From: an uncultured Anaerolineales bacterium
Lineage (GTDB): Bacteria > Chloroflexota > Anaerolineae > Anaerolineales > UBA11858
NCBI GenBank assembly: GCA_964448865.1
Contig: CAYUXO010000004.1
Location: 1 to 54,907 of the forward strand
Length of the DNA stretch: 54,907 bases
Reading direction: 5' to 3'
Shown: in pieces, positions 1,456 to 50,606 of the stretch
Numbering within the stretch: the first letter of the stretch is position 1
Layout: every line of letters starts with the position of its first letter
Notes under the pieces: generated by a model
Database searches by the model: none
Told to the model about the DNA's origin: nothing
What the model saw: only the letters and a program-made list of their open reading frames with translations
Program-made: the position numbers and the translations under genes

Positions 1456-1456
1456 T

Positions 1457-2629: not shown

Positions 2630-2632
2630 GAC

Positions 2633-6217: not shown

Positions 6218-6227
6218 TTCTCCTCAA

Positions 6228-7838: not shown

Positions 7839-7916
7839 TGTAGCTTTCAAAATGACAAATTAACCTTGAAGAGGATAATAACATCCCCCGAAATTGCTCT
7901 AAATGCAAATTATAGC

Positions 7917-8495: not shown

Positions 8496-8540
8496 ACCTT
8501 TCAAGCTAATACATCAATTGACAATAATCTCACCTAACTG

Positions 8541-15584: not shown

Positions 15585-15608
15585 AATGAATGATATTGGG
15601 AGATATTC

Positions 15609-16473: not shown

Positions 16474-16530
16474 ATATATTCCGACTGAAGTCATAGAATT
16501 AGCTTTGCTGAGCGTCCCTCTAGGGACGCT
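16474..16530 (+). repeat. Bipartite REP-like unit 1; its second hairpin probably doubles as the sucCD terminator
   Basis: ATATATTCCGACTGAAGTC...GCTGAGCGTCCCTCTAGGGACGCT followed by a T-run; first 41 nt match 17051-17091 at 36/41. Confidence 0.75.
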
Positions 16531-16948
16531 TTTTTTTATTGGATATTTCTTCTAATCTCATGTCTAGATCACCAAAATTGTGATGCAGTTTTTGTTTCCT
16601 GACATACATAATGACTTTCTCTGTATCCCACCTACTTACGGTAAATGTTCCATAACCAATTTGCCACTTAAAATGATCATCCATCAGACAGTTCTGGTTG
16701 ATGAATCTAGAAGACACACCTTTACCTTTTTTCACTAGCTCTGCTATTGTGACGGTTGTAGAGAACTTAAGAAACAAATGAACATGATCGGGCATGCCAT
16801 TAATGGCCAGAGTTTTGCATCCAAGTTGATGAACCTGATCAACAATATTGCGATAGACCCGGCGCTCAATATTTGGTGTAATCCAATACTCTCTATCCCA
16901 GGTTGCCCAAACAAGATGGAGATATAAAGCAAACTTCTTGACCCCCAT
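16520..16948 (-). mobile_element. tnpA: Y1 (HUH) transposase, IS200/IS605 TnpA or REP-associated RAYT type
   Basis: HLVWAT, MPDHVH (HUH), KG.SS, WQ.GY, catalytic Y...Q..HH; AT-rich; no tnpB nearby. Confidence 0.88.
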
Positions 16949-21079: not shown

Positions 21080-21101
21080 TGAATAAAGTACTTTTGATAA
21101 T

Positions 21102-21128
21102 AAAACCCGGACTTAGGTCCGGGTTTTT
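21102..21128 (+). terminator. Intrinsic terminator
   Basis: AAAACCCGGAC-TTAG-GTCCGGGTTTTT. Confidence 0.8.
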
Positions 21129-21198
21129 GGTTTAACGACATCTAATTTGTAAATTTTGAGATGTTAGCCGTTAGCAATGACTATTATTCAGTTCCAGA

Positions 21199-21406
21199 TC
21201 CCGGTCGGAAGCTCAGCTTCCTCCGGTCTTTTAACTATGTATCTCTGGAACAGGAGATTGCCACGGGTGCTGCGCACCCTCGCAAAGACAGTATTTCATC
21301 CGGTCCTCGGTCGGAAGCCCAGCTTCATCCGGTCTCCGGTCCCGTTCCGATGGTTCTACAATTCAGGGGATTGCTTCGTCCACTCCGCTCCCTCGCAAAG
21401 ACAGTA
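21199..21406. repeat. Alternating B-A-B-A mosaic of two palindromic repeat types
   Basis: B = CGGTCGGAAGCyCAGCTTCmTCCGGTCT (two copies); A = GGrGATTGC...CCCTCGCAAAGACAGTA (two copies). Confidence 0.7.
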
Positions 21407-21407
21407 A

Positions 21408-23978
21408 TTAACCCGTTCTCCGTCTTTTTATCCACCTCACACTATTCGACCGGCAGGAAGGACAAATTCTTTCCTGGTCAGAATTGTAGATTACATCCCA
21501 GGATTCGCCGCAAACCAGGCATTGGAATTCAGCTGGTTGGTTTTCGTCTTTCGGCCGGGGATTGCGAGGACCGGGAATCCGACTGTCTTTCAATAACTCC
21601 CGGGTATTGGAAATCATTTCCGGGGTCACCTCCAGGCGTTTCTCTTCAGACTGTTCCATGATATGCTGCCAGCGTTTCCCTTCTGCTGCGGAACACCATT
21701 CCAGCTGCAATCGTGAAGGATCCAGTTCCAGCTTTTCCATACCATCCCAGAGGCCATCCAGCCGGCGGGTAGTGCTTCGGTTAGCGTCAATATAATGACA
21801 GTCCACATAATGGCATCCCGAGACCAGCACCACTGGAGCCCCTTTGCGAAAGGCATACCATACAAAATCCGGACTCACTCTACCGGAGCACATGGTACGG
21901 ATGATGATGGCATTGGGGGGATAAGCCATCCGCCCCACTCCGGCTGTATCCGCGCCGGCATAGGAACACCAGTTGCAGGCAAAAGTCACTATGTTATCAC
22001 CAGGATTCTCTTCCAGCATAGCATCAATCTGGGCATAAATGGCCTGGTCTGAAAAGTGTCTCATGGCAATGGCGTTAAATTTGCATTCCGCTGCGCAGGT
22101 TCCACAGCCAGTACAGGCAGCGGTGATAACCTCAGCCAGTTGGCCTTTTTGCCAGGTAATGGCACTGAAAGGGCAGACATCCGCGCAGATACCACACAGT
22201 TTACAAAGATCTTCTTCTACCACAGCCGTTATGGCATCCACTGAAAACTCATCTTTATTGAGCAGGATCGCTGCCCGCGAAGCGGCAGCGCTGGCCTGGG
22301 TAACACTCTCCCTGACATCTTTGGGACTCTCTGCGCCGCCAGCGATAAAGACTCCCTTGGTTGGTGTATCGACCGGGCGCAGTTTGGGATGAGCTTCCCG
22401 CAAAAACCCACTGGGGGATTTGGAAAGACTGACCATCTGCCGGATAGTCTCTGTATTTCTTCCCGGAACAGCTCCAACTGCCAAAACCAACATATCAAAG
22501 ATGTGCGATTCCAGGCGGTTGCTGGTGGTATTTTCCACCAGCAGGTGCAGGTCACGGGTCTCGGGATCTTCAGATATTTCACCTGGCAATCCCCTGATAT
22601 AAGTTACTCCGGAACTTTTACTGCGCATCAACAACTCTTCAAAACCTTTTCCGAAGGCCCGCAAATCTGTATAAAAAACCGTCGATTCCACTTCTGGATA
22701 GGTATCATGCAAATACTGGGTAGACTTGATGGTATTCATACAGCAGATATTGGAACAATAGGGATTGCCCCGCTCTGGATCCTGGGTCCTTGATCCTACA
22801 CATTGTATGAAACCAACTTTTTTAGGAAATGCCAGGTCACTGGGGCGGCTCAAATGTCCTTCCAGGGGGCCGCTGCTGCAGATCAACCTCTCAAACTCCA
22901 GGCTGGTAACAACATTCTCATAACTGGAATATCCATATTCATCCAACGGTGTGGGATCATAGATATCCATGCCGGTAGCCACCACCACCACACCGACATC
23001 GACCTCGATGATCTCATCACTCATGGCAAAATCAATGCAGCCTTTTTCACAGGCTTCGATGCATTTTCCACAGGCGATGGGGTTTTGTCCCAGGCATTCA
23101 TTGGCATTGACGATATATGCTGAAGGTACCGCCTGGGGAAAGGGCAGAAATATTGCTCGGCGACTTCCCAAACCTACCTGGTACTCATCCGGAATGACAA
23201 CAGGACAAACCTCGACACAATCACCACAGGATGTGCATTGGGTTTCATCCACATAACGGGCTTTTTTCCGGATCCGGACCATAAAATTTCCTACATAACC
23301 AGATATATCTTCAACTTCTGAGTATGCTAGTAATTTGACTTTGGGATGTCGACCGACATCCATCATTTTGGGTCCAAGTATTCAAATACTACATTCTATA
23401 TCCGGATATACCTTGTCGAGCTGAGCCATGATCCCGCCAATGCTCGGCTGCCGTTCCACCAGGTAAACCTGGTGCCCAGAATCTGCCAGGTCCAGGGCTG
23501 CCTGAATGCCGGCCACTCCTCCTCCGATCACAAGAGCAGCATCCGTAACCTGGATCTGCTCCTCTTCCTGGGGAATCAACCAGCGCGATCTGGCCACTGC
23601 CACTTTAAGGATCCGTTTAGCTTTCGCAGTAGCAGCCTGACCATTTCCCGGGGTCACCCAGGAACAATGCTCCCGGATATTAGCCATCTCCAACAAATAG
23701 GGATTTAGCCCCGCTCCGGTTATGCAATTTCGGAAAATCACCTCATATGATGTGGGTGAGCAAGAAGCTACCACGACCCGGTTCAGATTATTTTCCCGGA
23801 TCGCCTTCTGGATCTCCTTCTGTCCTGGATCAGCACAGGTGTACTTATTGCGAATTGCGGTGACAACTCCCGGCAGGCCAGCGGCATACTCACGCAGAGC
23901 TTCCGTGTCAACAGTTCCGGCTATATTAGACCCACAATCACAGACAAAAACCCCGATGCGTATATTAGTATCTGCCAA
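21408..23978 (-). CDS. hdrA: Selenocysteine-containing HdrA-MvhD fusion flavoprotein (856 aa, Sec199)
   Basis: ORFs 23382-23978 and 21408-23366 are in frame across one TGA: LDKVYPDIECSI-U-ILGPKMMDVGRHP. Has CDCG, IREHCSW, GGGVAG, QCVGSR, CSNICC, HPKLRP, ferredoxin motifs and MvhD motifs (CNWCSY, MCSGR, GCH..DCHY). Confidence 0.9.
23344..23384 (-). promoter_or_regulatory. Sec UGA codon plus bacterial SECIS-like hairpin
   Basis: UGA (23384-23382), 20 nt, then perfect stem GGAUGUC-GGUC-GACAUCC (23361-23344). Confidence 0.8.
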
Positions 23979-24032
23979 AGAACCCCTCCTTTTTTCTGCT
24001 TCTTCGATAAACCTAAATGAATATTCCTGTTG

Positions 24033-25178
24033 TCAAATCGTTTCAGCAATAATTGTAGCCAGGTCCCTGATCTGCACCGTTTCCTCCTCCCGGAGGGGGT
24101 CCTTCTGGGCGCATTTCAGATGGATCTGGCATTTGATACAAGTAGTAATCAGGATATCCGCTCCAGTTGACCTGGCTTCCGATAACCGCTCTGATTGGAT
24201 CTTTTTGTTTACCTGTCCGCAGGTTGACCAGCAGCTGGTACCGCAGCATATGCTGGATTGGCGGTTGTGATCCATTTCAACCAGCTCATATCCCGATTGC
24301 CGGATTAAATCCCGGGGCTGCTGGTAGATCCCTGAAAATCTACCCAACCGGCAGGGATCCTGATAGGTTGCTGAGCCATTTTCAATCCTTGCTTCTGCTC
24401 TCCCCTCACTGGCAAATCCAGACTGCTCAAGCAATTCAACCAGATGCAATACCTGCAGACCATGGTCTCCAACCTGTTCCGGATAAGTATGTTTGAGGGT
24501 ATAGGCACACTCCGGGCAGGTGGTGATAATCCTCTTTGCTCCTGATTCTTTAATTATTTCCAGGTTTAATCCCGCCAATCTCTGGAAATTTTCCATATCT
24601 CCCTGCCAGAATTGGTCATGGCCACAGCAGCGTTCATTTTCAAGCAGAATAGGTTCAATTCCAAGATGATTGAAAATTTTGACTGCTGCCCGGGCTATTT
24701 CAATTCCTTCAATACCTAAACCTGCAAAAGCTTCCTGATAATAGGGCAGACAACCCGGGAAATATATAGTGTCAGAATCTTTACTTGTCCGAAGATCACC
24801 ACCTAACCAATCCAGACGATTCTGGGATAAATTTGGGTCCGTCATTAAACGACCCCAGGTCTGGATCATCCCGCTGTGGGTGCAATCCCCGGAGAGGTTT
24901 TTGTTTCGGGCTATTTGACGGGCATCCTGGATAAAGGAAGAAAAATCCACCAGGGAGGGACATATTTCACTGCAGCGCTGACATGTTAAACAGGACCACA
25001 ATAGCGGATCATCCAGAACAGGATCTTCCCCTGAGCTGACGGCAGTCTCCACCAGCAGCCTGGGGCTGGTATAGCCGTCGACAAGATGGATGGTAATCGG
25101 ACAAACAGAACTGCATTTTCCGCAGTCCAGGCACAACCAGGCCCGATTGGTCTGAATGATCTCCTTAAATGGATCCAT
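24033..25178 (-). CDS. HdrD-like Fe-S oxidoreductase (2x[4Fe-4S] plus two CCG domains)
   Basis: CLDCGKCSSVCP, CLTCQRCSEICP, FPGC, RCCG, TTCPEC, YQDPCRLGR, ICCG, TTCIKC. Confidence 0.88.
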   Translation of the reverse strand: MDPFKEIIQTNRAWLCLDCGKCSSVCPITIHLVDGYTSPRLLVETAVSSGEDPVLDDPLLWSCLTCQRCSEICPSLVDFSSFIQDARQIARNKNLSGDCTHSGMIQTWGRLMTDPNLSQNRLDWLGGDLRTSKDSDTIYFPGCLPYYQEAFAGLGIEGIEIARAAVKIFNHLGIEPILLENERCCGHDQFWQGDMENFQRLAGLNLEIIKESGAKRIITTCPECAYTLKHTYPEQVGDHGLQVLHLVELLEQSGFASEGRAEARIENGSATYQDPCRLGRFSGIYQQPRDLIRQSGYELVEMDHNRQSSICCGTSCWSTCGQVNKKIQSERLSEARSTGADILITTCIKCQIHLKCAQKDPLREEETVQIRDLATIIAETI

Positions 25179-25180
25179 TA

Positions 25181-25582
25181 TTAACCCTGGATTATTCTTT
25201 CTGCTGACATTATCAGGTCTAAATCACTCACAAAACTCTCTCCATCGTTGGCTTTGAGAAGGGAAAACTGGAGCTGGTTTTCTCTGTAGCCCAGCAATTT
25301 CAGTATGGCACTGGTTTCTTGATATACACTCCGGGCGGCCTGATTGCCGGAATTATGCTGGCATTCCCCTTCAGAACAGCCAACCAGATAAACTCCATCT
25401 GCTCCATTTTCAAAGGCTTTTAAGATTATTCCAGGTGTTATGCGCCCCAGGCAGGCCAGTCTAATGGGATAAACCGCAGTTGAATAAGATAAGCGCTTTG
25501 TACCGGCGTCTTCCAGGCTGCTGTACCCATTCCAATTACAGCTAAACACAATGATCTTTTTTTCCGGTTTCTTTTTGCTCAT
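25181..25582 (-). CDS. mvhD: MvhD/FlpD family [2Fe-2S] subunit
   Basis: IIVFSCNW, IRLACLGRI, AFENGADGV.LVGC.EGEC; start placed at ATG 25582. Confidence 0.85.
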   Translation of the reverse strand: MSKKKPEKKIIVFSCNWNGYSSLEDAGTKRLSYSTAVYPIRLACLGRITPGIILKAFENGADGVYLVGCSEGECQHNSGNQAARSVYQETSAILKLLGYRENQLQFSLLKANDGESFVSDLDLIMSAERIIQG

Positions 25583-25583
25583 T

Positions 25584-28500
25584 TCACACCAGGATTCTTT
25601 CCAGTATGTGTTCCAGCTCATTATCCTGTTGAGTTCCGGGAATGATGGCCCCGGATGGGCAATGGGCTGTACAGATTCCACAATCAAAACACAATAATGG
25701 GTTGATATAAGCTGAACTGATTTCTCCAACTTTGATTACTTCGGGAATCCCAAATCCGCAGATATCCTGGCAGGTCCCGCAAGACCGGCAGCGCTTAGGA
25801 TCCACTTCAGCTGCTGGTTGTTTCACGCGGCTTGAAACTTTGCTGATCCAGGCTTTAATTCTGGCTGCGGCCCCTGTTCCGCTTACCTCAGGTGGCAGTT
25901 CTGGCGAGCAGATCACCAGACCGTAATCTACCGTATCCAGACTCATGCGCGTGCCTGACATCAGGAGCCGCTGATTGGATAATAAAAGAGACTTTGAAAT
26001 GTGGTCCAGCTCAGCTCCGCTTCCCGGGGCCAGGACCAGGCAGTCTGTCCGGTAGCTACCATCAGGCCAATCCGCCCGATAATGACCACCCACCCTGATT
26101 ATTTCCCCTGCCATTACCTCAGCGATATCAGATACTAAGCCAAGCTTTGCCAGGGAATCTTGACAGTACTTCGCAGATGCCCCATTACCTACGATCAGAA
26201 TGCTGTTTGGTATAGCAGATGGGTCTGGTTTGCCGTTTTTTCCGCCAGGTACCCTCACCAGGGCGGACCGGATCAATACCCGGGCAGCAGCGGTGGTCTT
26301 TTTCTTGTTCCGGGGATGTGCCCAGGCACACTGTTCCCGAATATTGACAAATTCAATGGGCAGGGATCTAACCAAAGACCTGAAGATGCCCAGGTTTTCT
26401 TTGCAGCGCAAACGCTGGTAGGTACAACTGTGGCAAATTTGATCCAGGGAACAACAGCTGCAGGCAGCCAGGATGATCCTTTCCAGGTTGTTCTCCCGGG
26501 CAATTCTTCTGATGACGGCTGCGCCATCAGCTGTGCAAGAAAATGGCAGTTCCCTGGCATAATCGATTTCTGGCCAGGATAAGGCTTCTTTGCAGATACC
26601 GGCTGTATCCACTAAGGAAGAAATCTCTTCTCCGCACTGGCAGACGATCAATCCTGTTTTATTCTCACCCACCCGGTCAGCTGGTTCATATCCATCGAAA
26701 AGGATCTTATTAATAAAGCCGTCCTTTTCCATCACCTGGTAAGCAGATGCTGATCCTGCCAGCGGATCAGGTGCTGCCATGATTATCAAGTCTTGCCGGG
26801 ATGCGGGCAGAGAGAGATCATCTGCTGCGATCACTGCGGAGACATGGATTGACCAGGTAGAAGCTTTTTGGTTGTGGATCACAGCACCGGGCTCACATAT
26901 TTCCACGCAGGCCATACATTCACTGCAGGGACCACAAGCCAGGCAGCGCCCCGCTTCTTGAAGAGCACTCTTTTCACTCAATGCCAGATCAACCAGTTGG
27001 AAATTATTCAACCGGTCATTTACAGGCAGACTTGGAATGGATTTTCGCGCCTGATGGGCTTTTTCTATGTTATCAAGCCGATATTCCATCTCTTCCTGAC
27101 TGAGAATTACTTGCTCCCTATCTTTTCCGTGTTCACTAGTTTGACCCATTAGATAATTATGGATGGAATGGGCAGCCCGGTGGCCTTCTCCAACTGCATC
27201 AACTACAAAAGTAGTGTTACCCAGTCGGAAATCTCCCGCTGCAAATAGACCCTCCAGCGGGGTCATCAGCCGATCATCAGTCTGAACTTCACGGCCATTA
27301 TCCCTAATTAATCCCTTATCAAGGGGTAAAAATGAGGGGTCAATCTTCTGCCCCAGAGCCCAGATCACCAGATCTCCCGGAATAAGATGTTCCGTACCCT
27401 CCAACTCTTTAAACTGGCGCTTACCATCCACCACATCGCCAACTTCGGCTTCCAGGCAAAGAACACCCTCAATTTTCTTTTTATCCAGGCTGATTTCCTT
27501 AAAAACTCTTCCTTTGATAATTTCAATGCCTTCTTCAATAGTTGCCTGAAGTTCGTGATCCGATGCCCGAATTCCCCGGCAAAGAACCTTAACCTCATCA
27601 ACCCCTAATCGCAGGGCAGATCGGGCTGCATCCAGTGCGACATCTCCCCCTCCAAGGACAATCACCGTGCGGCCTGTCAGCTTATCACCTTTACCAAAAC
27701 TGACCCGTTTCAAAAAATCCAGGCTGAGCCAGTTATCCTTGTGGTCAGCGTTCTTGATGTCTGGTTTAAGAGCTACAACAGCACCTGCCGCGGCCAAAAC
27801 CGCATCAAAACCATCGTCCATCAGTCCGGGTATATCATCCACCCAGGTATTCAGCTTCAGATCTATTCCCTCTGCCAGGATACCCTCGATTTCCCAGCTC
27901 AATTGCTCGTGAGAAACCCGGTGGGGAGGTATACCCACACGCATCATACCTCCCGGTTCGGGATTGGCATCAAAGATTTTGACCTCATGACCCATTCGGG
28001 CCAAGTCCCGTGCCGCAGTCAGTCCGGCCGGTCCCGCTCCAATAATGGCAACTTTCTTTCCGGTAGGTTCCCGTTCAGGTGGCGGATCACCATCATTTTC
28101 TTCCTGATGATCGAAAGCCCAATCAGCCAGATAATGTTTGAGAGCCATGATATTCACAGCCTGGTCAAGCTGGCCACGGGTGCAGGCAGTTTCACAAAGG
28201 TGATTACAAACCCTTCCGCAAACAGAGGGGAAAGGCAGAGCATCATGGATCAGATCATAGGCCTCCCGGTAACGTGCTTGACCTACCAGCGCAACATAGC
28301 CCTGGACATGAATGCCTGCCCTGCAGGCATTGGAGCAGGGAGACACTCCCGCTTTTGCGATCACAGCACAATCTGGCTGTCCACCAAAATAAATTGCTTT
28401 CAGGTCAGTTCCTGGAATGGTGATCGGGCAAACTTCCAGGCAATCACCACATGCTGTGCACTTTTCCAGGTCAATATAACGGGGACTCTGGTTGAGATCC

Positions 28501-28748
28501 ACCTGAAAACCCCCGGCCACTTTTTCCAGGTTCAACACCTCAGAATTTGTCCAAACCTTGATCCGGGGATGTTTAAGAATTTCCAGCAGCCGGGTATTAT
28601 TTAAATGTGGTTGGTATCCATCCCCTAATATTTCCCCGATAAAAGGACCCGATTCCACCAGGTTAACAAACAGCCCAAAATCTGCCAGATCAGATGCTGC
28701 CTGGATTCCCGCCGGTGTGGTGCCTAGGATCAAGACCTCTTTTTTCAT
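25584..28748 (-). CDS. HdrL-like flavoprotein (HdrA fragments with an inserted GltD/NfnA-type NAD(P)H module)
   Basis: PRYID.EKCTACGDC..VCP, PC..AC, CGRVCNH.CE..C.R, IIGAGPAGL, GGGDVALD, FAAGD, CQCG, NIREQCAW, terminal 2x[4Fe-4S]. Confidence 0.82.
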   Translation of the reverse strand: MKKEVLILGTTPAGIQAASDLADFGLFVNLVESGPFIGEILGDGYQPHLNNTRLLEILKHPRIKVWTNSEVLNLEKVAGGFQVDLNQSPRYIDLEKCTACGDCLEVCPITIPGTDLKAIYFGGQPDCAVIAKAGVSPCSNACRAGIHVQGYVALVGQARYREAYDLIHDALPFPSVCGRVCNHLCETACTRGQLDQAVNIMALKHYLADWAFDHQEENDGDPPPEREPTGKKVAIIGAGPAGLTAARDLARMGHEVKIFDANPEPGGMMRVGIPPHRVSHEQLSWEIEGILAEGIDLKLNTWVDDIPGLMDDGFDAVLAAAGAVVALKPDIKNADHKDNWLSLDFLKRVSFGKGDKLTGRTVIVLGGGDVALDAARSALRLGVDEVKVLCRGIRASDHELQATIEEGIEIIKGRVFKEISLDKKKIEGVLCLEAEVGDVVDGKRQFKELEGTEHLIPGDLVIWALGQKIDPSFLPLDKGLIRDNGREVQTDDRLMTPLEGLFAAGDFRLGNTTFVVDAVGEGHRAAHSIHNYLMGQTSEHGKDREQVILSQEEMEYRLDNIEKAHQARKSIPSLPVNDRLNNFQLVDLALSEKSALQEAGRCLACGPCSECMACVEICEPGAVIHNQKASTWSIHVSAVIAADDLSLPASRQDLIIMAAPDPLAGSASAYQVMEKDGFINKILFDGYEPADRVGENKTGLIVCQCGEEISSLVDTAGICKEALSWPEIDYARELPFSCTADGAAVIRRIARENNLERIILAACSCCSLDQICHSCTYQRLRCKENLGIFRSLVRSLPIEFVNIREQCAWAHPRNKKKTTAAARVLIRSALVRVPGGKNGKPDPSAIPNSILIVGNGASAKYCQDSLAKLGLVSDIAEVMAGEIIRVGGHYRADWPDGSYRTDCLVLAPGSGAELDHISKSLLLSNQRLLMSGTRMSLDTVDYGLVICSPELPPEVSGTGAAARIKAWISKVSSRVKQPAAEVDPKRCRSCGTCQDICGFGIPEVIKVGEISSAYINPLLCFDCGICTAHCPSGAIIPGTQQDNELEHILERILV

Positions 28749-28764
28749 GGATTTCCCATTAAAC

Positions 28765-30336
28765 TTAACCCGTCGTCAGCTCCAATCCCTTTTGATAACC
28801 GATTTCGAATACTTCCAGATTGATATCCACGGTTTTGGGTGGAACGGATTCAGCGATGGCTTGCTCCATGGCTTTTTTATCAACTATGCCCTCAACTGCA
28901 GCCCAGAACCCCAGCATAACGGTATTTGCAGCCCGGTTATTACCAGCCTTTTCTGCGATTTTGGTGGCCGGGATACCCAGGGTTCGAATATCCTTCCTGT
29001 GATCCTCGGGAAGTTTGATTAACTCATTATCGAATAACAGCACACCATTCAGTTTTAATCTGGAAACATATTTATCGTAGGCTCCCTGTGACATCATGAT
29101 CATGCTGTCTGGTTCAGTCAAGTGGGGATGGTGTATGGGGCTGCTGGAGATCACAACCTGGGATCCGGCAGCGCCACCCCTGGCTTCAGGTCCATAACTC
29201 TGGGTGAAGCAGGCTTCCAGATTATTGTATACAGCAGCAGCCATACCGATGATCTTACCGGCACTCATAATGCCTTGCCCGCCAAACCCGCCCAGCTGGA
29301 TTTCTTTTCGCGGAAGTTTTCTTCTTTCAACTTTCAGATCGACCCGTTTGTCAAGGGATAATTTTTCCCTCTGCCAGAATTTTTCAGCCAGGACAACACG
29401 CTGGTCCATAGCTTCTTTGAAATCTGGCCTGTCCTCAGCCAAGAACTCACCCTCTACAATTTCAATTATTTCCCCTTTTTCATTTACCTTGATATGAGCA
29501 TCTTTGGGATGAAGGTTACTTTCCGTTCGTCCTACCAGTTGGTAATGTTTCATTACTTCTAGGCCTCGCCGGCGCAAGTTTTCCGGATCAAGACCTCTGC
29601 CTTCAGGGTTCCAGCGAGAATAAGCTGTAGAGCATGGAGCAATGATTTCCACAAAACTGAAACCTGAATGGGTCAGCGCTTTTCTCAAAGTCCAATCCAG
29701 TTGACGGGCATGTAAAGTTGTCCAGCGGGCAACAAAAGAAGCTCCACTAGCCGCTGCCAGATAAGGCAAGTTAAAAGGGTATTCATAATTGCCGTATTGA
29801 GCTGTAACTGCCCGGGCTTCATGGGGCGTGGTGGGACCTACCTGCCCTCCTGTCATGCCGTAATTGAAGTTGTTTACACATATCACGGTGATACCCAGGT
29901 TTCTTCGAGCTGCATGAATAAAATGGTTGCCGCCGATACCGGCGATGTCGCCATCACCTGATATGACGATTACCTTCAGATCAGGATTGGCTATTTTCAA
30001 TCCAGTGGCAAAGGGAATTGCCCGACCGTGGGTAGTATGAAATGAATCCAGCCTGACGTATCCAGCAATTCTGCCGGTGCAGCCTATTCCAGATACAACA
30101 GCAACTTTGTCCAGATCCCAGCCCTGATTCTCTTCCAGCCACTTCAATGAGCTGATAAAGGATGTCAATGCTGTTCCCAGGCCGCAGCCCTGGCACCAGA
30201 TATGGGGCAGCCGTTCTCCCCGCAGCAAATCATCCATGGGGTGCAGGCCAGTGATCCAATCTCCCTCTGACGCTGACTCATAAGTCATGATGCGGGTTTT
30301 CTTTTTTTTATTAATTCTTTCAACTGTCATACTCAT
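28765..30336 (-). CDS. 2-oxoacid:ferredoxin oxidoreductase beta-gamma fusion
   Basis: WCQGCG, SGIGC, HGRA, TPP motif GDGD..NN, then gamma domain GFGGQG..QSYGPEARGG. Confidence 0.9.
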   Translation of the reverse strand: MSMTVERINKKKKTRIMTYESASEGDWITGLHPMDDLLRGERLPHIWCQGCGLGTALTSFISSLKWLEENQGWDLDKVAVVSGIGCTGRIAGYVRLDSFHTTHGRAIPFATGLKIANPDLKVIVISGDGDIAGIGGNHFIHAARRNLGITVICVNNFNYGMTGGQVGPTTPHEARAVTAQYGNYEYPFNLPYLAAASGASFVARWTTLHARQLDWTLRKALTHSGFSFVEIIAPCSTAYSRWNPEGRGLDPENLRRRGLEVMKHYQLVGRTESNLHPKDAHIKVNEKGEIIEIVEGEFLAEDRPDFKEAMDQRVVLAEKFWQREKLSLDKRVDLKVERRKLPRKEIQLGGFGGQGIMSAGKIIGMAAAVYNNLEACFTQSYGPEARGGAAGSQVVISSSPIHHPHLTEPDSMIMMSQGAYDKYVSRLKLNGVLLFDNELIKLPEDHRKDIRTLGIPATKIAEKAGNNRAANTVMLGFWAAVEGIVDKKAMEQAIAESVPPKTVDINLEVFEIGYQKGLELTTG

Positions 30337-30370
30337 CCCTCCCGGGATCTTGTATTATCCAGCTTGTTGA

Positions 30371-31561
30371 TCAAGCCGGCTGTCTTTCTGCCGCCCCTTT
30401 CCGAATAGCCTCCAGGACATCCCGGGGATCTAATATATCTCCCCCGGGCTTATGAACACCGATCACCTTTGTTTTCCCACTAACACAACGCTCGACTTCT
30501 CTAGCGATCTGTCCCATATTGATCTCCGGGACAATAAATGCAGCGATCTTCTCTGCCAGTTTCGAAATCAGATCTTCGGGAAAAGGCCAGACGGTGATCA
30601 AGCGCAAATAACCAACTTTTAATCCTTCTTTTCTGGCCTGTTCAATGGGCCAGAGGGAGGTACGGGCGGATATACCATATGAAACCACCACCACATCTGC
30701 TCCGCGAAGTTTTTCTTTCTCAACCTGGATGATGTCTTTACGGTTGGCGTTGATTTTTTCCATCAAACGGGCGACATTCCATTGGTTGGCTTCGGCATTC
30801 ATGGCCGGGTAACCCCGCTCATCGTGGGTCAATCCTGTAACATGGATCCTGTAGCCATCCCCTGCTTTAACCATGGGAGATATATAACCAGGATCTCCTT
30901 TTGGTCCAGAGCGGTAAATTCTAAAACGATCCGGTTCCTGCTCTCCTTTCAAAACTTGGGGACGGTTAATGATCTCAACCTCTTCCACCGGAGGAATAAC
31001 CACTTTTTCCGTCATGTGTCCTACCTCGGCGTCTGTCATAACCAACACCGGTGTTCGGTATTTTTCAGAAAGGTTAAAAGCCCTCAGCGTCAGATCAAAA
31101 AGCTCCTGGGGAGAACTGGGGCAGAGTGCAATGATCTCGTAGTCACCGTGCGATCCCCAGCGAGCCTGCATCATATCCTGCTGGCCAACCAGAGTTGGTA
31201 ATCCCGTGGATGGCCCCCCCCGCTGCACATTGACCAGCACACAAGGAGTTTCAAGCATAATTCCCAGGCCAAGATTTTCCATCATCAGGGAAAAACCAGG
31301 ACCGCTGGTTGCTGTCATGGACTTGACCCCTGCCCAGGATGCCCCCAACACAGCATTCATTGATGCCAGTTCATCCTCCATCTGCATAAAATTTCCCGCC
31401 ACCTGGGGAAGGCGCACAGACATGCGTTCGGCAATTTCGGTTGCCGGAGTGATGGGGTATCCAGCAAAAAAGCGGCAGCCTGCCAAAATCGCACCTTCCG
31501 CACAGGCATGATCTCCAAGCATAAAATGTTCCCCTGTAAGCCTGCCTTGTTCTTGATTCAT
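30371..31561 (-). CDS. 2-oxoacid:ferredoxin oxidoreductase alpha subunit
   Basis: GYPITPATE, QMEDE, TATSGPGFSLM, QRGGPSTG.PT, PEINMGQ. Confidence 0.92.
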   Translation of the reverse strand: MNQEQGRLTGEHFMLGDHACAEGAILAGCRFFAGYPITPATEIAERMSVRLPQVAGNFMQMEDELASMNAVLGASWAGVKSMTATSGPGFSLMMENLGLGIMLETPCVLVNVQRGGPSTGLPTLVGQQDMMQARWGSHGDYEIIALCPSSPQELFDLTLRAFNLSEKYRTPVLVMTDAEVGHMTEKVVIPPVEEVEIINRPQVLKGEQEPDRFRIYRSGPKGDPGYISPMVKAGDGYRIHVTGLTHDERGYPAMNAEANQWNVARLMEKINANRKDIIQVEKEKLRGADVVVVSYGISARTSLWPIEQARKEGLKVGYLRLITVWPFPEDLISKLAEKIAAFIVPEINMGQIAREVERCVSGKTKVIGVHKPGGDILDPRDVLEAIRKGAAERQPA

Positions 31562-31866
31562 GCTTTCACCTCACTGCGCTGGATGGGTTGCACCAGGTCT
31601 GGAGCATGAGTCCCTCCGTCTTCAATGTAAATGGCAAAATCCGGGCATAAAAGTGCACATAATCCGCAGTTAACGCAAATTGTCTCAGGTATGATTTCCG
31701 GCGGATGATATCCCTTGGCATTGGTTTGGCTTGACAGCACCAATACATCCTGGGGGCAAAACTCAATACAAAAACCGCATCCTTTACAGCGGTCATCGAT
31801 AATATGCACGATACCGTGTGTAATCAGGATGCGGTCCCTATCTAATGGTTGTCTCCAAAGAGCCAT
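31558..31866 (-). CDS. 2-oxoacid:ferredoxin oxidoreductase delta (2x[4Fe-4S]) subunit
   Basis: CKGCGFCIEFCP, CVNCGLCALLCPDFAI, NAKGYHPP. Confidence 0.88.
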   Translation of the reverse strand: MALWRQPLDRDRILITHGIVHIIDDRCKGCGFCIEFCPQDVLVLSSQTNAKGYHPPEIIPETICVNCGLCALLCPDFAIYIEDGGTHAPDLVQPIQRSEVKA

Positions 31867-31986
31867 AGCTCCTCCTCAACAAGATCGATAAGCCACAATC
31901 AATAAAGAAAATATTTCCAGTAAAATTATCTGATGATTTCTCTGCCCTACTTATCCCTAACAGTTATATTATTACCTGACTCGGTT

Positions 31987-33018
31987 CTAATACATCATCT
32001 GGTTGATCTCATCCAGTGACTCTTGCGTGGGGCGGAGTTTATCAACCGGAAGCCGGTTAAGCGCTGTTTCCGGGAGATTATAAAGATCAAAGAGCGCTTT
32101 CTGTTTGGGATTGATATAGATCAACCCGGTGATCAATTCATTATTGTCATTGGCTTTTTCCAGCATCACCAGAGCCCGGGCGCGATCTGTAGGTTCATAA
32201 TCCTGAGCCAGTTTTTTGAGGATGATATGGGTCCCATCATACAGGGGAACTTCCAGGGTTTCTCCTTTTTCGTACTGAACCTTGATAGCCTTCACCGGGG
32301 GCACAAAAGAAAGCTCATGCAAAGCAACCTCATGAGATTTACCCCAGGCATAGGAGTGGAAGGCTTCATCTGAATTATTGAAAGTCACACAAGGGCTGAT
32401 CACATCTATAACCGCAATTCCTCTGTGGAGGATTCCGGCTTTAATGAGAGCCTTCAGCTGCTGGGGGTCACCCGAAAATGTCCGGGCCACAAAAGACGCT
32501 CGTCCTGCAATGGCTTCCCAGACTATATCCACCGGAACATAGCGGTTCTGACCTTGTTTCTTTAGCGCCAAACCCTCTTCGGCGGTGGCAGAAAACTGGC
32601 CTTTGGTGAGACCGTAGACACCGTTATTGGCGACAATGTAAAGCATAGGTAGATTACGCCTGGTAACATGCTTGAACTGGCCCATACCAATGCTGGCAGT
32701 ATCACCGTCTCCGCTGACACCGATGCCAATCAGGGATGTATCCCCAAATAATGCGCCGGTTGCCAGGGAAGGCATGCGCCCGTGCAAGCCGTTAAATCCA
32801 AATGAACGATCCAAGAAATAAGTGGGAGCTTTACTGGAACAACCAATTCCACTGACTTTGAGGATGCGTTCAGGGGGGATGTCAAGTTCATAGCAAGCTG
32901 CGATCATCTGGGCAACGATGGCGTTATGTCCACAACCCAAACACAATGTAGATCGTTTGCCCTTATAGTCTTCCTTGGATAATCCGATTTCGTTGAGTTT
33001 TTTGGTTTTCTCAGCCAT
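31987..33018 (-). CDS. 2-oxoacid:ferredoxin oxidoreductase beta subunit (second enzyme)
   Basis: LCLGCGH, SGIGCSSK, HGRM, SGDGD, NNGVYGLTKGQ, SPCVTFN. Confidence 0.92.
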   Translation of the reverse strand: MAEKTKKLNEIGLSKEDYKGKRSTLCLGCGHNAIVAQMIAACYELDIPPERILKVSGIGCSSKAPTYFLDRSFGFNGLHGRMPSLATGALFGDTSLIGIGVSGDGDTASIGMGQFKHVTRRNLPMLYIVANNGVYGLTKGQFSATAEEGLALKKQGQNRYVPVDIVWEAIAGRASFVARTFSGDPQQLKALIKAGILHRGIAVIDVISPCVTFNNSDEAFHSYAWGKSHEVALHELSFVPPVKAIKVQYEKGETLEVPLYDGTHIILKKLAQDYEPTDRARALVMLEKANDNNELITGLIYINPKQKALFDLYNLPETALNRLPVDKLRPTQESLDEINQMMY

Positions 33019-34847
33019 TAAGCTCTCTCCTCATCCATCACAGCGCCTTTAATCCAACCTGCACACAGCGGCAGTCCATCAAGGAGTGCTAACGAGACCA
33101 GGTCTGCTGCCCTGTCGGGAATTTCAAGCGATAAGATTTTATGCATCTGGCCGTCCCGGTTATTTTCAACAACATATATTTTTTCCTGCGACTTAATAAA
33201 ATCAATCACCTTTTTGCCGACCGGCAGAGATCTCAATCGCAGATAATTGAGTTTGATGCCATCTACCTTGAGGTAATCCAGGGCTTCCTGGACAGCTGCA
33301 TCAGTTGAACCAAAAGCGATCAATCCGGTTTTTGAGCCGCGCTGTTTATTGATCACTGGCTCAGGAAGGTCTGCCACCGAGGATTTGATCTTGTTTTTGA
33401 TCCGGGTGAGATTTTTTACCCAATCATCTGGATTCTCACTGTAGTTTGCATAATCGTCATGTCCGGTTCCTCTGGCAAAGTAGGCGCTCCGTGGATGAGT
33501 GTTGCCAGGTATAGTCCGGTAAGGGATAAAATCGCCATCCAGGTCTTTATACCTGCCCCATTCATCCTTTATTTTTTCCAGGTCCTCTTCCCAGAGAACC
33601 TTACCTCTATCAATGGGGGTATCAGGATATTCAAAGGGTTCAGACATCCATTGATTCTTCCCCAGGTCCAGATCTGAGAGGACTAGGACAGCTGTTTGAT
33701 ACTTTTCTGCCAGATCCTGAGCTTTCCAGCCAAACTCAAAACATTCCCGTATATTTCCGGGTATGAGCAGGATATGTTCTGTATCACCCTGCCCCAGATA
33801 ATAGGATAAAGTGATATCACCCTGGGCAGTTCGGGTTGGCAGTCCGGTACTGGGTCCAACCCGTTGTATGACCCAGATCACAACCGGGATCTCGGCGAAA
33901 TAAGCCAGGCTAGTATATTCGCCCATCAAACTCAGTCCAGGACCTGAGGTCGAAGTTACGGATCTTAAACCAGACCATCCAGCACCGATGCACATGCCAA
34001 TGGCTGCCAATTCATCCTCAGCCTGAAGGATGGCGTAGGTGTTTTTTCCGGTCTCAGGGTCTATTCTAAGTTTGGGAGCAAATTCCAGCATCGCTTCCGG
34101 GAGACTGGTGGCAGGGGTGATGGGATACCAGGCCATAAAATGCATGCCACCAAAAATAGCTCCCAACCCCCCGGCAGTATTACCATCTACCAGAATACAA
34201 CAGTCTGTTAATTTTCGGGGTTCAATTCCAATTGATAAATCCAAATCCAGATTATCATCAGCCCATTGGAAAGCCAATTGGATAATGTGAAGGTTAAATT
34301 CAACTGGACTTCGTTTTCCCTTGAAATGAAATTCCAGGGCACCTTCTATGGAACCAAGCTCGATGCCCAATAAGTTGGCCAGGATTCCCACATAGACCAT
34401 GTTGGCAACAAATTTACGAAGATCCCGGTGGGGTTTTGCTTCCCGAACCAGGTCTTTGACCGGCATGGGCACCACGATCATATCTTCCCGGACGACGGCT
34501 TGTTTGATATCGTCCGCATAGAGGAACAAACCGCCTTCTACCAGATCATCCTGGTCTTCCGTAAAGGTACTGGGATTCATAGCCACCACGATATCCGCCA
34601 CATTCCGGCGGCCGGCATACTCTTTCTCACTGACCCGGATCTTATACCAGGTCGGCAAACCCTGAATATTCGAAGGAAAGATATTCTTTCCGGATATAGG
34701 AATACCCATCTTAAATATCGCTCTAAGCAAAGTCAAATTTGCTGTTTGGCTTCCGGAACCATTAACAGTACCAATATTGATTGAAAATTCATTAACACCG
34801 CTCAAACGGGATTGAGTGTGTTTTGCAGAACCTTTACTTTGAACCAT
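33018..34847 (-). CDS. 2-oxoacid:ferredoxin oxidoreductase gamma-alpha fusion subunit (second enzyme)
   Basis: NGSGSQTAN, FPSNIQGLPT, WYPITPATS, QAEDELAA, TSGPG, RVGPSTGLPT. Confidence 0.92.
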   Translation of the reverse strand: MVQSKGSAKHTQSRLSGVNEFSINIGTVNGSGSQTANLTLLRAIFKMGIPISGKNIFPSNIQGLPTWYKIRVSEKEYAGRRNVADIVVAMNPSTFTEDQDDLVEGGLFLYADDIKQAVVREDMIVVPMPVKDLVREAKPHRDLRKFVANMVYVGILANLLGIELGSIEGALEFHFKGKRSPVEFNLHIIQLAFQWADDNLDLDLSIGIEPRKLTDCCILVDGNTAGGLGAIFGGMHFMAWYPITPATSLPEAMLEFAPKLRIDPETGKNTYAILQAEDELAAIGMCIGAGWSGLRSVTSTSGPGLSLMGEYTSLAYFAEIPVVIWVIQRVGPSTGLPTRTAQGDITLSYYLGQGDTEHILLIPGNIRECFEFGWKAQDLAEKYQTAVLVLSDLDLGKNQWMSEPFEYPDTPIDRGKVLWEEDLEKIKDEWGRYKDLDGDFIPYRTIPGNTHPRSAYFARGTGHDDYANYSENPDDWVKNLTRIKNKIKSSVADLPEPVINKQRGSKTGLIAFGSTDAAVQEALDYLKVDGIKLNYLRLRSLPVGKKVIDFIKSQEKIYVVENNRDGQMHKILSLEIPDRAADLVSLALLDGLPLCAGWIKGAVMDEERA

Positions 34848-34882
34848 TAAAACTCCTGTCTATATTGCTGATCCAATAATTA

Positions 34883-35536
34883 TCACCGCATCATTCGGTC
34901 CATTAAATTGAAGTGTTCGTGGAGTATTTCTAATCCACGTTCCTTGTCTCTATTGATGGCTGCTTCGGCCAGCTGATCATGATAGGTCCAGACCTGCTCA
35001 AGGTACTCCAGGTCGGCATAAACGTTCAATCCAACTGCTTCATAGGCATCCCAATAAGCTTCTAGCAATCCGGAAACAAAGACATTATTCAGCCTTTTAT
35101 AGAATGTCATGTGCAGCTCGCGGTGTTCCTGGTGGGGAATTCTTACAGGACTGCCTTTTAATTTTTCCCAGGCGCTTTTAACCAGGCGGCGGAGTTCAGC
35201 ATGATCGGATTCATTCAGTAAATCAACAGATTGGGGAAAATAAGAATATTCTAAGTGCCTTCTCAAGTCCACATAATCATCAAAATAGGATTGATCCTGC
35301 TGAATTGCATAACACAGCGAGACACCTACTGCAGGGATGAACGAATAAGGCAGGCGGCGGATGCCTAGACGGGGTTTAACATCTACCAGGCCGAGAGCTT
35401 TGGCAACTTCCAACTGTTCTCGTAAAGTGGAGATGCTGATACCCATTTCCAGGCTGAGATCTTTCAGCGCCGGCAGCTTATCAGTATCCGAATCTACAGA
35501 TTGAAGGAGATAGGAGAAAAATTCAGAATGATCCAT
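34883..35536 (-). CDS. GntR/FadR family transcriptional regulator
   Basis: wHTH LP.L..LS..MGIS..TLRE.L....GLV; C-terminal FCD-like domain; start placed at ATG 35536. Confidence 0.8.
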   Translation of the reverse strand: MDHSEFFSYLLQSVDSDTDKLPALKDLSLEMGISISTLREQLEVAKALGLVDVKPRLGIRRLPYSFIPAVGVSLCYAIQQDQSYFDDYVDLRRHLEYSYFPQSVDLLNESDHAELRRLVKSAWEKLKGSPVRIPHQEHRELHMTFYKRLNNVFVSGLLEAYWDAYEAVGLNVYADLEYLEQVWTYHDQLAEAAINRDKERGLEILHEHFNLMDRMMR

Positions 35537-35547
35537 ATTTGCCCCTG

Positions 35548-35613
35548 ATATGATTAATAAGATCAATAAGATTAATCCTATTTAATAATACACTCCAATT
35601 TTCTTTCCGTCAA
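35548..35613 (-). promoter_or_regulatory. Sigma70 promoter and candidate operator of the FadR-OFOR-Hdr cluster
   Basis: TTGACG-17-TATTAT (35613-35585); 9-bp-periodic ATAAGAT-like boxes at 35548-35581. Confidence 0.55.
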
Positions 35614-35628: not shown

Positions 35629-35661
35629 AGACTCCCGGAGTTTTTAAAACTCCGGGAGTCT
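35629..35661. repeat. Perfect palindrome, REP-like, likely also a terminator
   Basis: AGACTCCCGGAGTTTT-T-AAAACTCCGGGAGTCT with an adjacent A-run (U-tract on the minus strand). Confidence 0.75.
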
Positions 35662-50604: not shown

Positions 50605-50606
50605 GG

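Follow-up and report, generated by a model that had tools for sequence, protein, structure and literature searches.

Two described gene arrangements come closest to the one treated here, and both are given as they appear in the accessible portions of the papers cited. In Syntrophobacter fumaroxidans, a cluster was named "HdrAL/POR (Sfum_0012-0018)" (PMC5947623, Sedano-Nunez et al. 2018), in a single sentence that proposes no function for it. In the reductive tricarboxylic acid (TCA) cycle clusters of tubeworm symbionts and Thioflavicoccus mobilis, korABCD and tfrAB are interspersed with flxABCD-hdrABC, and a complex shuttling bifurcated NADH electrons straight to 2-oxoglutarate:ferredoxin oxidoreductase (OGOR) was proposed (PMC6315080, Rubin-Blum et al. 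2019). Here we describe a ten-gene cluster in which two 2-oxoacid:ferredoxin oxidoreductases (OFORs) adjoin heterodisulfide reductase (Hdr)-type genes in an uncultured marine Anaerolineales bacterium. The window, by which we mean the whole stretch of 54,907 nucleotides analyzed, is an entire 54.9-kb contig (C4) of a 2.7-Mb metagenome-assembled genome (MAG) in 198 contigs that is 91.6% complete. The OFOR-Hdr block of this window is a real, conserved, uncharacterized operon. Our preferred reading is that of a bifurcating system of the Hdr type in which an NfnB-like HdrL serves as a new input and a 2-oxoglutarate-type OFOR as a new output.

The ten same-direction genes occupy positions 21408 to 35566 of the minus strand (open reading frame [ORF] calls, Pfam, and NCBIfam). 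First comes a putative GntR-family regulator of the FadR (FCD) subfamily (34883 to 35566, with a likely ATG start at 35536). It is followed by OFOR-1, which is composed of a fused gamma-alpha subunit of the two-subunit KorAB type (33018 to 34847; Pfam and NCBIfam TIGR03710) and a thiamine pyrophosphate (TPP)-binding beta subunit (31987 to 33018; Pfam and NCBIfam). OFOR-2 consists of a 2x[4Fe-4S] delta subunit with an N-terminal WRxPLD motif (31558 to 31866; Pfam and ortholog alignment), an alpha subunit (30371 to 31561; Pfam and NCBIfam PRK08659), and a beta-gamma fusion (28765 to 30336; Pfam and NCBIfam). The Hdr part comprises a 1,054-aa HdrL-like protein (25584 to 28748; Pfam, NCBIfam, and alignments), a free-standing MvhD (FlpD) that starts 1 nt past the HdrL stop (25181 to 25582; Pfam), an HdrD-like fusion of HdrC and HdrB (24033 to 25178; Pfam Fer4 and two CCG domains), and an HdrA-MvhD fusion that contains selenocysteine and ends in a CxxC...CxxC tail (21408 to 23978; Pfam, NCBIfam, and alignment). 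The regulator and OFOR-1 gamma-alpha are 35 nt apart, gamma-alpha and beta overlap by 1 nt, and 120 nt separate OFOR-1 beta from delta; delta and alpha overlap by 4 nt, and the gaps that follow are 34 nt (alpha to beta-gamma), 16 nt (to HdrL), 1 nt (to MvhD), 2 nt (to HdrD-like), and 54 nt (to HdrA). The close packing of the genes between OFOR-2 beta-gamma and HdrA (1 to 54 nt apart) hints at translational coupling.

A preliminary description of the window had listed ten co-oriented genes with these domains and a largest gap of ∼120 nt, all of which was borne out by the ORF, Pfam, and NCBIfam analyses. It had also reported the cluster to be without MvhAG, Flx, and separate HdrB/C genes, and Pfam indeed detected no MvhA/G, Flx, or separate HdrB or HdrC domains among the ten genes, the HdrD-like protein being itself an HdrC-HdrB fusion. 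No hydrogenase, Fdh, or Flx genes occur in the Hdr-OFOR module. The ten genes lack a Flx-type architecture, with an NfnB-like protein as the NAD(P)H module, which separates them from FlxABCD-HdrABC; the NiFeSe_Hases domain is absent from the contig, which separates them from Mvh/Vhu hydrogenase-Hdr complexes. A contig from an independent public run (X3 record 9) bridges positions 21300 to 31918 with 21 differences, and contigs from other studies span the OFOR-2/OFOR-1 junction (X1 record 7, 28458 to 33464; X9 record 31, 30059 to 34322). Because independent assemblies bridge the junctions, the gene arrangement is neither a chimera nor an assembly artifact.

Compared with the described systems, the window shares with the S. 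fumaroxidans cluster an Hdr set with HdrA/HdrL beside an OFOR and no hydrogenase, a likeness that follows the published one-sentence description. The window adds a second, two-subunit OFOR and the GntR/FCD regulator, and its host belongs to the Chloroflexota. The tubeworm symbiont clusters, as far as their accessible description goes, likewise embed OGOR genes among Hdr genes. They use FlxABCD as input, separate HdrB and HdrC, and tfrAB, whereas the window has an HdrL NfnB/HdrA chimera plus MvhD as input, a fused HdrCB, a selenocysteine HdrA with MvhD, and no tfrAB, in a genome with a classical SdhAB.

Next, conservation of the arrangement was examined from both sides of the OFOR-Hdr junction. 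A search of genome contigs with HdrL gave 79 loci, 10 of which carry OFOR-2-type genes (tblastn, fixed thresholds). Six of the 79 contain a full-length short HdrL recovered as a single match, and in all six the OFOR-2 genes lie directly upstream. Wherever the contig permits, the core order is delta-alpha-beta(-)gamma-HdrL-MvhD-HdrD-HdrA(MvhD); it is present in L005, L006, L008 (titled Desulfobacterales), L009, L020, L027, and L044 (Glassbacteria), while contig ends interrupt the cluster in L007 and L011. The beta and gamma subunits of OFOR-2 are separate genes in several relatives. The other 69 loci hold HdrL/HdrA paralogues without an OFOR, most HdrL-family loci of this kind (matches of ∼4.3 kb) having a second HdrA plus MvhD part on the same strand. 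Chance does not account for the core order, which was met again in unrelated lineages; that OFOR and Hdr genes adjoin fortuitously, with no functional link, is very improbable given that the same order was found in several phyla and was recovered from both sides of the junction.

OFOR-1 was found in only 3 of the 10 OFOR-linked loci and a GntR/FCD gene in 2 of them. Both are confined to the nearest relatives, and the conserved unit is OFOR-2 plus the Hdr part only. Thus, the ten-gene cluster that had been put forward as a unit stands in its OFOR-2/Hdr core and not in OFOR-1 or the regulator.

The search from the OFOR side covered 301 Chloroflexota genomes, with OFOR-2 beta-gamma as the query. 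Matches at E ≤1e-40 were obtained in 121 of the 301 (a tally that includes two unpublished genomes, left aside thereafter), and the protein is absent from most relatives of the same order. Flanks were fetched for the 12 best other genomes. The top four (G077, G105, G141, and G244) have the whole OFOR-HdrL-MvhD-HdrD-HdrA order, and in G068 the OFOR is followed by a double HdrA and HdrD. In three (G086, G211, and G291) the OFOR adjoins sucCD, and in G168, G226, G175, and G108 neither Hdr genes nor sucCD were found in the fetched stretch, which in G226 stops with its contig after 9.6 kb. Unlinked OFOR and Hdr genes in relatives had been named in advance as the result that would overturn the proposed connection; instead, linkage was upheld, both in the six short-HdrL loci and in the four best Chloroflexota matches to OFOR-2. 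In a tree of alpha subunits, whose rows were picked by the two surveys and are not an unbiased sample, a single group (support, 86/82, not starred) unites 14 of 15 Hdr-linked sequences with G168, and the sucCD-linked Kor-type alphas lie just outside it.

The HdrL-like and HdrD-like proteins were characterized by domain, motif, and fold. HdrL begins (residues 1 to 113) with a stretch that corresponds to the opening part of the HdrA flavin domain plus half, the first, of the inserted ferredoxin domain (match, residues 4 to 113); this flavin-domain start has no Cys/Sec pair, and its Gly motif is degenerate in the lineage of the window. Residues 134 to 637 form an NfnB/GltD-like flavin adenine dinucleotide (FAD)/NAD(P)H module with Fe-S sites, residues 697 to 870 match the N-terminal [4Fe-4S] domain of HdrA, and residues 979 to 1040 form a 2x[4Fe-4S] domain. 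The core folds like NfnB, with Foldseek template modeling (TM) scores of 0.76 to 0.79 to 5jca_L and 4ylf_B, a confirmation that was the sole use made of the whole-chain model. Since the rest of the HdrA flavin domain has no counterpart in HdrL, the NfnB-like flavin is probably the only flavin of this protein, and the bifurcating site would probably lie in the selenocysteine HdrA. On the question of NADH versus NADPH specificity, the group of the window has CRGIR where distant orthologs have YRRTR, along with a 4-residue deletion.

HdrL was first defined in Desulfobacterium autotrophicum (PMC2702500, Strittmatter et al. 2009), and HdrA9-11 of ANME-1 are HdrA-NfnB fusions (PMC9012536, Chadwick et al. 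2022). According to the accessible text of these papers, both share with the window a fusion of HdrA with a glutamate synthase small subunit (NfnB), an NAD(P)H site, and a neighboring mvhD. With its NfnB-HdrA chimera and mvhD 1 nt downstream, the window protein is an HdrL of the Strittmatter type; it differs from both in its short form of 1,054 aa, from which the greater part of the HdrA flavin domain is missing, along with the Cys/Sec pair. The HdrD-like protein carries two CxxCxxCxxxCP motifs and two complete CCG motifs (Pfam CCG twice, 95 bits), which places it with HdrB/HdrC. All 11 orthologs compared retain its Cys residues 16/19/22/26, 63/66/69/73, 143/184/185/221/224, and 276/311/312/347/350. 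As for CoB-CoM heterodisulfide reductase as an enzyme activity, the HdrC and HdrB equivalogs of NCBIfam score far below their cut-offs. In the free MvhD (25181 to 25582), CNWN stands in place of the CNWC of the MvhD fused to HdrA, leaving one Cys fewer.

With TGA read as selenocysteine (U), HdrA is a protein of 856 aa with the motif DCSIU-ILGPK, the in-frame TGA lying at 23382 to 23384 of the minus strand (corrected position; translation and alignment to solved HdrA). In the alignment to solved methanogen HdrA, the U falls on the second Cys of LDCSMCILAPKM, and Sec197 of Methanococcus maripaludis HdrA occupies the same site (PMC13518236, accessible portion). TGA is retained in eight of nine HdrA genes of OFOR-linked loci, the ninth (L051) having TGT. 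Twenty nucleotides after the UGA, ortholog comparison revealed an 18-nt hairpin, GGAUGUC-GGUC-GACAUCC, that resembles a selenocysteine insertion sequence (SECIS; 23344 to 23361, minus strand). Its synonymous sites are invariant in the eight TGA-bearing genes, and it is absent from the Cys version in L051; folding energy alone does not set it apart (z, −0.77), its support being the synonymous-site invariance. The genome encodes tRNA-Sec (C65) and a SelB wing domain (C150), so that UGA at a Cys/Sec position, a downstream hairpin, tRNA-Sec, and SelB, as expected of a bacterial selenoprotein, are all present. HdrA residues 7 to 657 align with residues 13 to 655 of 8rvu_a, a solved bifurcating HdrA, at E = 2.9e-223 with the Cys motifs included. 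The protein has the N-terminal Fe-S domain, the thioredoxin reductase (TrxR)-like FAD domain with the Cys/Sec pair, and the inserted and C-terminal ferredoxin domains that define HdrA. NF040770 (HdrA2, an HdrA-MvhD fusion) gave 1,095.2 bits against a cut-off of 1,100 with C scored for U, and the fused MvhD was detected by Pfam. Beyond the MvhD domain, the tail (21408 to 21560, residues ∼805 to 856) reads CxxC...CPxCRSNS and has the look of a zinc ribbon; it is kept in a 10-row consensus of HdrA orthologs, four rows of which end before it.

The families of the two OFORs bear on the substrate. OFOR-1 gamma-alpha exceeded the TIGR03710 cut-off (512.3 versus 482.75) and has the domain order POR then POR_N; with a fused gamma-alpha, a beta subunit, and no delta, OFOR-1 belongs to the two-subunit KorAB type, and its best solved relative is the Magnetococcus OGOR 6n2n_A (E = 7e-59). 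OFOR-2 alpha exceeded the PRK08659 cut-off (560.5 versus 411), and Pfam showed the modules of a four-subunit Kor/Oor enzyme: alpha (POR_N and PFOR_II), TPP-binding beta, gamma (POR), and 2x[4Fe-4S] delta. Its alpha subunit has as best solved match the generically named Pyrococcus 2-keto acid:ferredoxin oxidoreductase 1yd7_A, followed by a 2-oxoglutarate synthase. Elsewhere the genome encodes a single-chain pyruvate:ferredoxin oxidoreductase (PFOR; C81) and a VorB-type OFOR that exceeds its cut-off (502 versus 399; C23). It also encodes a classical SdhAB with two small subunits (sdhA_forward, 807 versus 727), an acetyl-CoA synthase domain and other Wood-Ljungdahl genes, and, in the window 5 kb beyond the cluster end, sucC and sucD for succinyl-CoA synthetase (14451 to 16469, plus strand). 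The OGOR-like relatives, the PFOR and VorB-type enzymes encoded elsewhere, sucCD, SdhAB, acetyl-CoA synthase, and the lack of a citrate synthase match (below) together favor two 2-oxoglutarate enzymes and a need for reductive synthesis of 2-oxoglutarate from succinyl-CoA.

It is improbable that the OFORs instead use other 2-oxoacids (pyruvate, branched-chain, or aromatic), making the unit part of amino acid fermentation and not of a TCA branch. The 2-oxoglutarate equivalogs of NCBIfam do score below their cut-offs with OFOR-2 (KorA, 374 versus 579; beta, 242 versus 364; delta, 60 versus 125), the closest solved alpha carries a generic name, and the S. fumaroxidans cluster is labeled "POR" in the literature (PMC5947623). 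However, PFOR and the VorB-type enzyme are supplied by other loci, the next-nearest OFOR-2 homologues adjoin sucCD in three genomes, and the best solved match of OFOR-1 is an OGOR.

The delta subunit of OFOR-2 offers a candidate for the physical link to HdrA. An R-x-P-[LFI]-D motif, mostly WRxPLD, is present at the N terminus of 14 of 15 Hdr-linked deltas and of none of 5 unlinked ones. The nearest solved relatives of delta are FwdF (E = 1e-18) and MvhB (E = 2e-17), polyferredoxins of Hdr super-assemblies; OGOR delta follows at 6e-12. This likeness to FwdF and MvhB supports a picture of delta as a putative built-in polyferredoxin adaptor. Delta was tested against HdrA because HdrA is common to all OFOR-linked variants (the standard one, L051, and G068). 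For complex prediction, delta was combined with HdrA residues 205 to 856 (the table-11 ORF after the TGA), each with an ortholog alignment. The delta-HdrA pair scored 0.76, and the best of three controls scored 0.00; among solved complexes, 116 of 157 attain this mark, as do 2 of 215 mismatched pairs, a calibration that is only rough because our own alignments were used. Contact agreement between delta-HdrA runs was at least 96%, and the partners had predicted local distance difference test (pLDDT) values of at least 81. The lowest-error contacts predicted were those of delta residues 5 to 10, the motif, with ORF residues 59 to 68 (263 to 272 of full-length HdrA), in the inserted ferredoxin domain. 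Structure prediction, proposed earlier as a check on the complexes, thus docked the delta motif on HdrA and speaks for likeness, not binding.

From the observed gene content, cofactor motifs, selenocysteine, synteny, and delta motif, we infer a physical complex, a direction of electron flow, a substrate, and a disulfide as the second acceptor. At a little short of an even chance, OFOR-2, the HdrL-like protein, MvhD, the HdrD-like protein, and the selenocysteine HdrA-MvhD make up one flavin-based bifurcating system serving a 2-oxoglutarate-type OFOR. NAD(P)H would be oxidized at the NfnB-like flavin of HdrL, from which electrons would reach the bifurcating FAD of HdrA by way of Fe-S clusters and MvhD. 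The low-potential electron would move from the HdrA ferredoxin domain to the polyferredoxin-like delta of OFOR-2 without an intermediate, which would thereby drive succinyl-CoA and CO2 to 2-oxoglutarate; the high-potential electron would go via the HdrD-like protein (HdrCB) to a disulfide. OFOR-1, as a KorAB-type enzyme dependent on free ferredoxin, and the GntR/FCD regulator would be lineage-specific additions, through which one switch that senses organic acids would govern both the Hdr-coupled enzyme and a second 2-oxoglutarate enzyme. A circuit or complex linking 2-oxoacid OFORs, NAD(P)H, and a disulfide had been suggested for the whole cluster; synteny of OFOR-2 with Hdr and the absence of a hydrogenase agree with this, and OFOR-1 falls outside the unit. 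It is possible, if doubtful, that the system amounts to a self-contained, ferredoxin-free, NAD(P)H-driven 2-oxoglutarate synthase, in which HdrA low-potential electrons enter a TPP enzyme via a delta with its own WRxPLD docking motif and the high-potential branch runs to a bacterial disulfide.

Several observations weigh against the bifurcating system proposed above. L051 is Hdr linked and has a delta without the motif, and in G168 an OFOR from inside the Hdr-linked clade has no Hdr genes within 13 kb downstream. Since the nearest solved relatives of delta are Hdr super-assembly polyferredoxins, the delta-HdrA result may reflect solved polyferredoxin-HdrA or HdrC-HdrA contacts known to the prediction model, and so indicate likeness and not binding. 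The whole-chain model of HdrL is poor (mean pLDDT, 64.4; predicted TM score, 0.45), the 2-oxoglutarate equivalogs stay under their cut-offs as noted, and the S. fumaroxidans cluster was listed as "not detected" in proteomes in the accessible portion of PMC5947623. Sequence does not reveal the direction of flow, and the genome yielded no candidate for a disulfide carrier. The citrate synthase family gave no match in this 91.6%-complete genome, an absence that rests on one Pfam family and that fits 2-oxoglutarate made via the reductive branch.

Alternatively, the genes might be coregulated without forming a complex. The OFORs would then use free ferredoxin, and HdrL-MvhD-HdrD-HdrA would act on its own as an NAD(P)H:ferredoxin:disulfide oxidoreductase, functionally analogous to FlxABCD-HdrABC, replenishing or draining the ferredoxin pool that the OFORs use. 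Gene neighborhood by itself is no proof of binding, OFOR-1 is without a delta and must use a soluble carrier, the G168 OFOR has no Hdr genes nearby, and the docking may mirror solved polyferredoxin contacts only. We nevertheless consider this arrangement unlikely, as the delta motif tracks Hdr linkage (14/15 versus 0/5) and forms the predicted contact, and as the gene order is fixed across phyla with gaps of ≤16 nt.

HdrA systems, like flavin-based bifurcation generally, are reversible in principle, and MvhD modules are input adaptors in solved Hdr complexes. The same physical unit could therefore run in reverse, with OFOR-2 oxidizing 2-oxoglutarate or another 2-oxoacid and confurcation with thiol electrons at HdrA reducing NAD(P)+ at HdrL, a catabolic 2-oxoacid:NAD(P)+ oxidoreductase that avoids free ferredoxin. 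Besides this reversibility, the MvhD fused to HdrA would suit such a role, as would the curated NAD-linked OFOR families (NADH-dependent phenylglyoxylate dehydrogenase is among the weak NCBIfam matches) and the M20 peptidase gene just upstream; sucCD could give ATP from succinyl-CoA. However, a strong terminator and a promoter part the M20 gene from the cluster, no thiol source is evident, and the Wood-Ljungdahl genes together with the missing citrate synthase match point to a reductive need for 2-oxoglutarate. We therefore regard reversed operation as rather unlikely.

Three partners were considered elsewhere in the genome and rejected. The sole DsrC-family gene (C13) ends in KKPTGCI, with one C-terminal Cys, and is TusE-like. 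The SdhAB of the genome is classical and not TfrA-like, which does not suit a thiol:fumarate reductase. A single clear [NiFe] enzyme is encoded (C52); it is of a sulfhydrogenase-like kind without an adjoining MvhD, which does not suit an Mvh hydrogenase.

In methanogens, low-potential electrons are channeled directly from HdrA via a polyferredoxin to the CO2-reducing Fwd (PMC13518236, accessible portion), a precedent for the proposed delivery from HdrA to OFOR-2. The window HdrA resembles those of the Hdr-Vhu-Fwd and Fdh-Hdr-Fmd super-assemblies (PDB 9sw2-9sw6, 7bkb, and 5odc) at E = 3e-223, about as closely as the methanogen HdrAs resemble one another. Selenocysteine at the Sec197 position and MvhD adaptors are shared, and the low-potential branch of the super-assemblies runs, in the published description, to a CO2-fixing enzyme through 2x[4Fe-4S] polyferredoxin units, the best solved kin of delta. 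By contrast, the donor in the window would be NAD(P)H through HdrL instead of H2 or formate, and the output would be a TPP-dependent OFOR instead of Fwd; the CoM-S-S-CoB acceptor cannot be assumed in a bacterium. In class II benzoyl-CoA reductase, BamDEF provides HdrA-, HdrD-, and MvhD-like proteins that serve, outside the methanogens, a reduction at very low potential. Their catalytic partner is a tungsten enzyme of the aldehyde oxidoreductase (AOR) type, whereas the putative partner in the window is an OFOR. As for the pairing of two enzymes, Hydrogenobacter thermophilus reportedly has a multi-subunit OGOR, the For enzyme, that bears a delta. The same organism has a two-subunit korAB OGOR (PMC5020499, accessible portion), so that a two-subunit and a delta-bearing 2-oxoglutarate enzyme would coexist there as in the window; in the latter, both adjoin in what appears to be one regulator-led unit, and the delta-bearing one is probably tied to Hdr.

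In the literature searched, the OFOR-linked Hdr form was not the subject of any biochemical, structural, or expression study, and among the matches listed for HdrL, an OFOR link appears only in one sentence of PMC5947623. The papers recovered that mention mvhD and hdrA along with a 2-oxoglutarate enzyme do not appear to describe this cluster either. The suggestion that the circuit might be undescribed was too strong, since HdrAL/POR was named in PMC5947623 and direct delivery from Hdr to OGOR was proposed in PMC6315080, in the accessible portions of both. What the window adds is a two-OFOR, GntR/FCD-led variant with a promoter, an operator-like site, and terminators; a synteny test from two sides; and an Hdr-specific delta motif with a predicted docking site and a likeness of delta to polyferredoxins. 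OFOR reductive carboxylation requires electrons near −500 mV, and for anaerobes in which neither H2 nor light drives ferredoxin reduction, their supply is a long-standing problem that concerns the reductive TCA branch as well as subsurface Chloroflexota. An Hdr module dedicated to lifting NAD(P)H electrons straight to the carboxylase would, if real, explain this supply: anaerobes of several phyla would carboxylate succinyl-CoA without a low-potential electron donor. It would also extend to bacteria, with new modules, the methanogen design of exchangeable input, fixed bifurcating core, and CO2-fixing output, and would represent a third kind of output module of Hdr super-assemblies after Fwd and class II benzoyl-CoA reductase. 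The delta motif provides a concrete handle on OFOR-Hdr coupling, and the disulfide partner becomes a second approachable problem.

The borders of the cluster were also analyzed. On the minus strand, a terminator scan placed an intrinsic-terminator-like hairpin with a 15-bp stem and a T-run at 35629 to 35661, after the upstream M20 peptidase gene, and a promoter scan placed a sigma-70-like promoter (TTGACG-17-TATTAT, 10/12 match) at 35585 to 35613. A TTGAC box matching this promoter precedes the same block in L005 and L006. Comparison with these two closest loci further revealed an operator-like block, GATTAATCTTATTGATCTTATTAATC (35552 to 35577, minus strand), between the −10 box and the regulator start codon; it is near-identical in both, though the spacers around it differ, and a search for the operator motif gave two overlapping matches in the window, both at 35552 to 35577, with 0.17 expected. 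The regulator itself matched Pfam FCD at 46.2 bits (cut-off, 24.3) and GntR winged helix-turn-helix at 22.6 (cut-off, 27), and no NCBIfam model matched it. Downstream of hdrA lies a 330-nt spacer ending in a GC hairpin that faces a convergent LysM gene. This hairpin, CCCGGAC-CTAA-GTCCGGG (21097 to 21123, minus strand), followed by TTTTATTAT and with AAAAA before it, was read from the sequence and is not in the terminator scan listing; it likely terminates transcription in both directions, serving the LysM gene as well. Within the cluster, the terminator scan detected no strong terminator. With terminator, promoter, and operator-like block upstream, a hairpin downstream, and no strong terminator inside, the borders fit a single regulator-led transcription unit that is probably autoregulated. 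Words similar to the operator (GATCTTGTTGA) are conserved in the 120-nt gap upstream of OFOR-2 in L005 and L006. Because a 17-mer operator search allowing three mismatches gave no match in this gap, an internal regulated promoter upstream of OFOR-2 is a possibility only.

Other features of the borders concern repeats and neighboring genes. The 3′ spacer (21085 to 21407) contains a 37-nt direct repeat with copies at 21193 to 21229 and 21299 to 21335, and ∼40-nt pieces of it occur on six other contigs (C86, C192, C136, C3, C112, and C24), making it a small dispersed repeat. Upstream of the M20 gene are genes for an Mrp/NUBPL-type Fe-S cluster carrier ATPase and a PSP1-domain protein (37796 to 38845, minus strand); the place of the ATPase, PSP1, and M20 genes is conserved in L005, L006, and L011. 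Between sucCD and the cluster lie isoprenoid genes, LysM genes, and an IS200-like transposase gene (16520 to 16948).

Among the related loci, L008 (15361 to 17681) and L020 (14913 to 16759) have a GAF-domain histidine kinase and a stand-alone receiver between hdrD and hdrA, so that a two-component pair takes the place of the GntR/FCD protein as regulator; L007 and L027 have a similar gap of 1.9 to 2.2 kb at this position, and in L008 a double-rhodanese gene follows hdrA. The L006 contig, titled as an uncultured Nitrosomonadaceae MAG, carries the full cluster and the same upstream genes at 61 to 88% protein identity to the window, which suggests misbinning or recent transfer. In L005 (3899 to 17339), OFOR-1 gamma-alpha, HdrA, and upstream genes are split into adjacent frames (tblastn); these breaks look like assembly indels and not pseudogenes.

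Further Hdr-type and NAD(P)H-linked genes occur in the same genome. Contig C98 (L001 of genome G000, positions 1 to 4320) opens inside the gene of an HdrA-like protein, so that only its C-terminal end is present, and goes on to encode an MvhD that contains an in-frame TGA, MetV (DUF5981), MetF (methylenetetrahydrofolate reductase), and a 477-aa HdrD-like protein. This MetVF-Hdr-MvhD set is a Moorella-type methylenetetrahydrofolate reductase cluster, of the kind reported for marine Chloroflexi. Contig C51 (L002 of G000, 6135 to 9724) encodes a 1,058-aa HdrA-like protein that contains ferredoxin domains and two FAD-binding starts. MvhD comes after it and a CBS-domain protein before it, and no OFOR is nearby. 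In the window itself, the minus strand at 45928 to 48354 holds an 808-aa ORF for which Pfam at E ≤1e-5 gave no family. Beside it, on the same strand, positions 48505 to 53034 encode a NuoE-NuoF fusion (576 aa), a 2Fe-2S/4Fe-4S NuoG-like protein (248 aa), and a molybdopterin oxidoreductase (699 aa), a set that resembles a formate dehydrogenase linked to NAD(P)H and possibly bifurcating.

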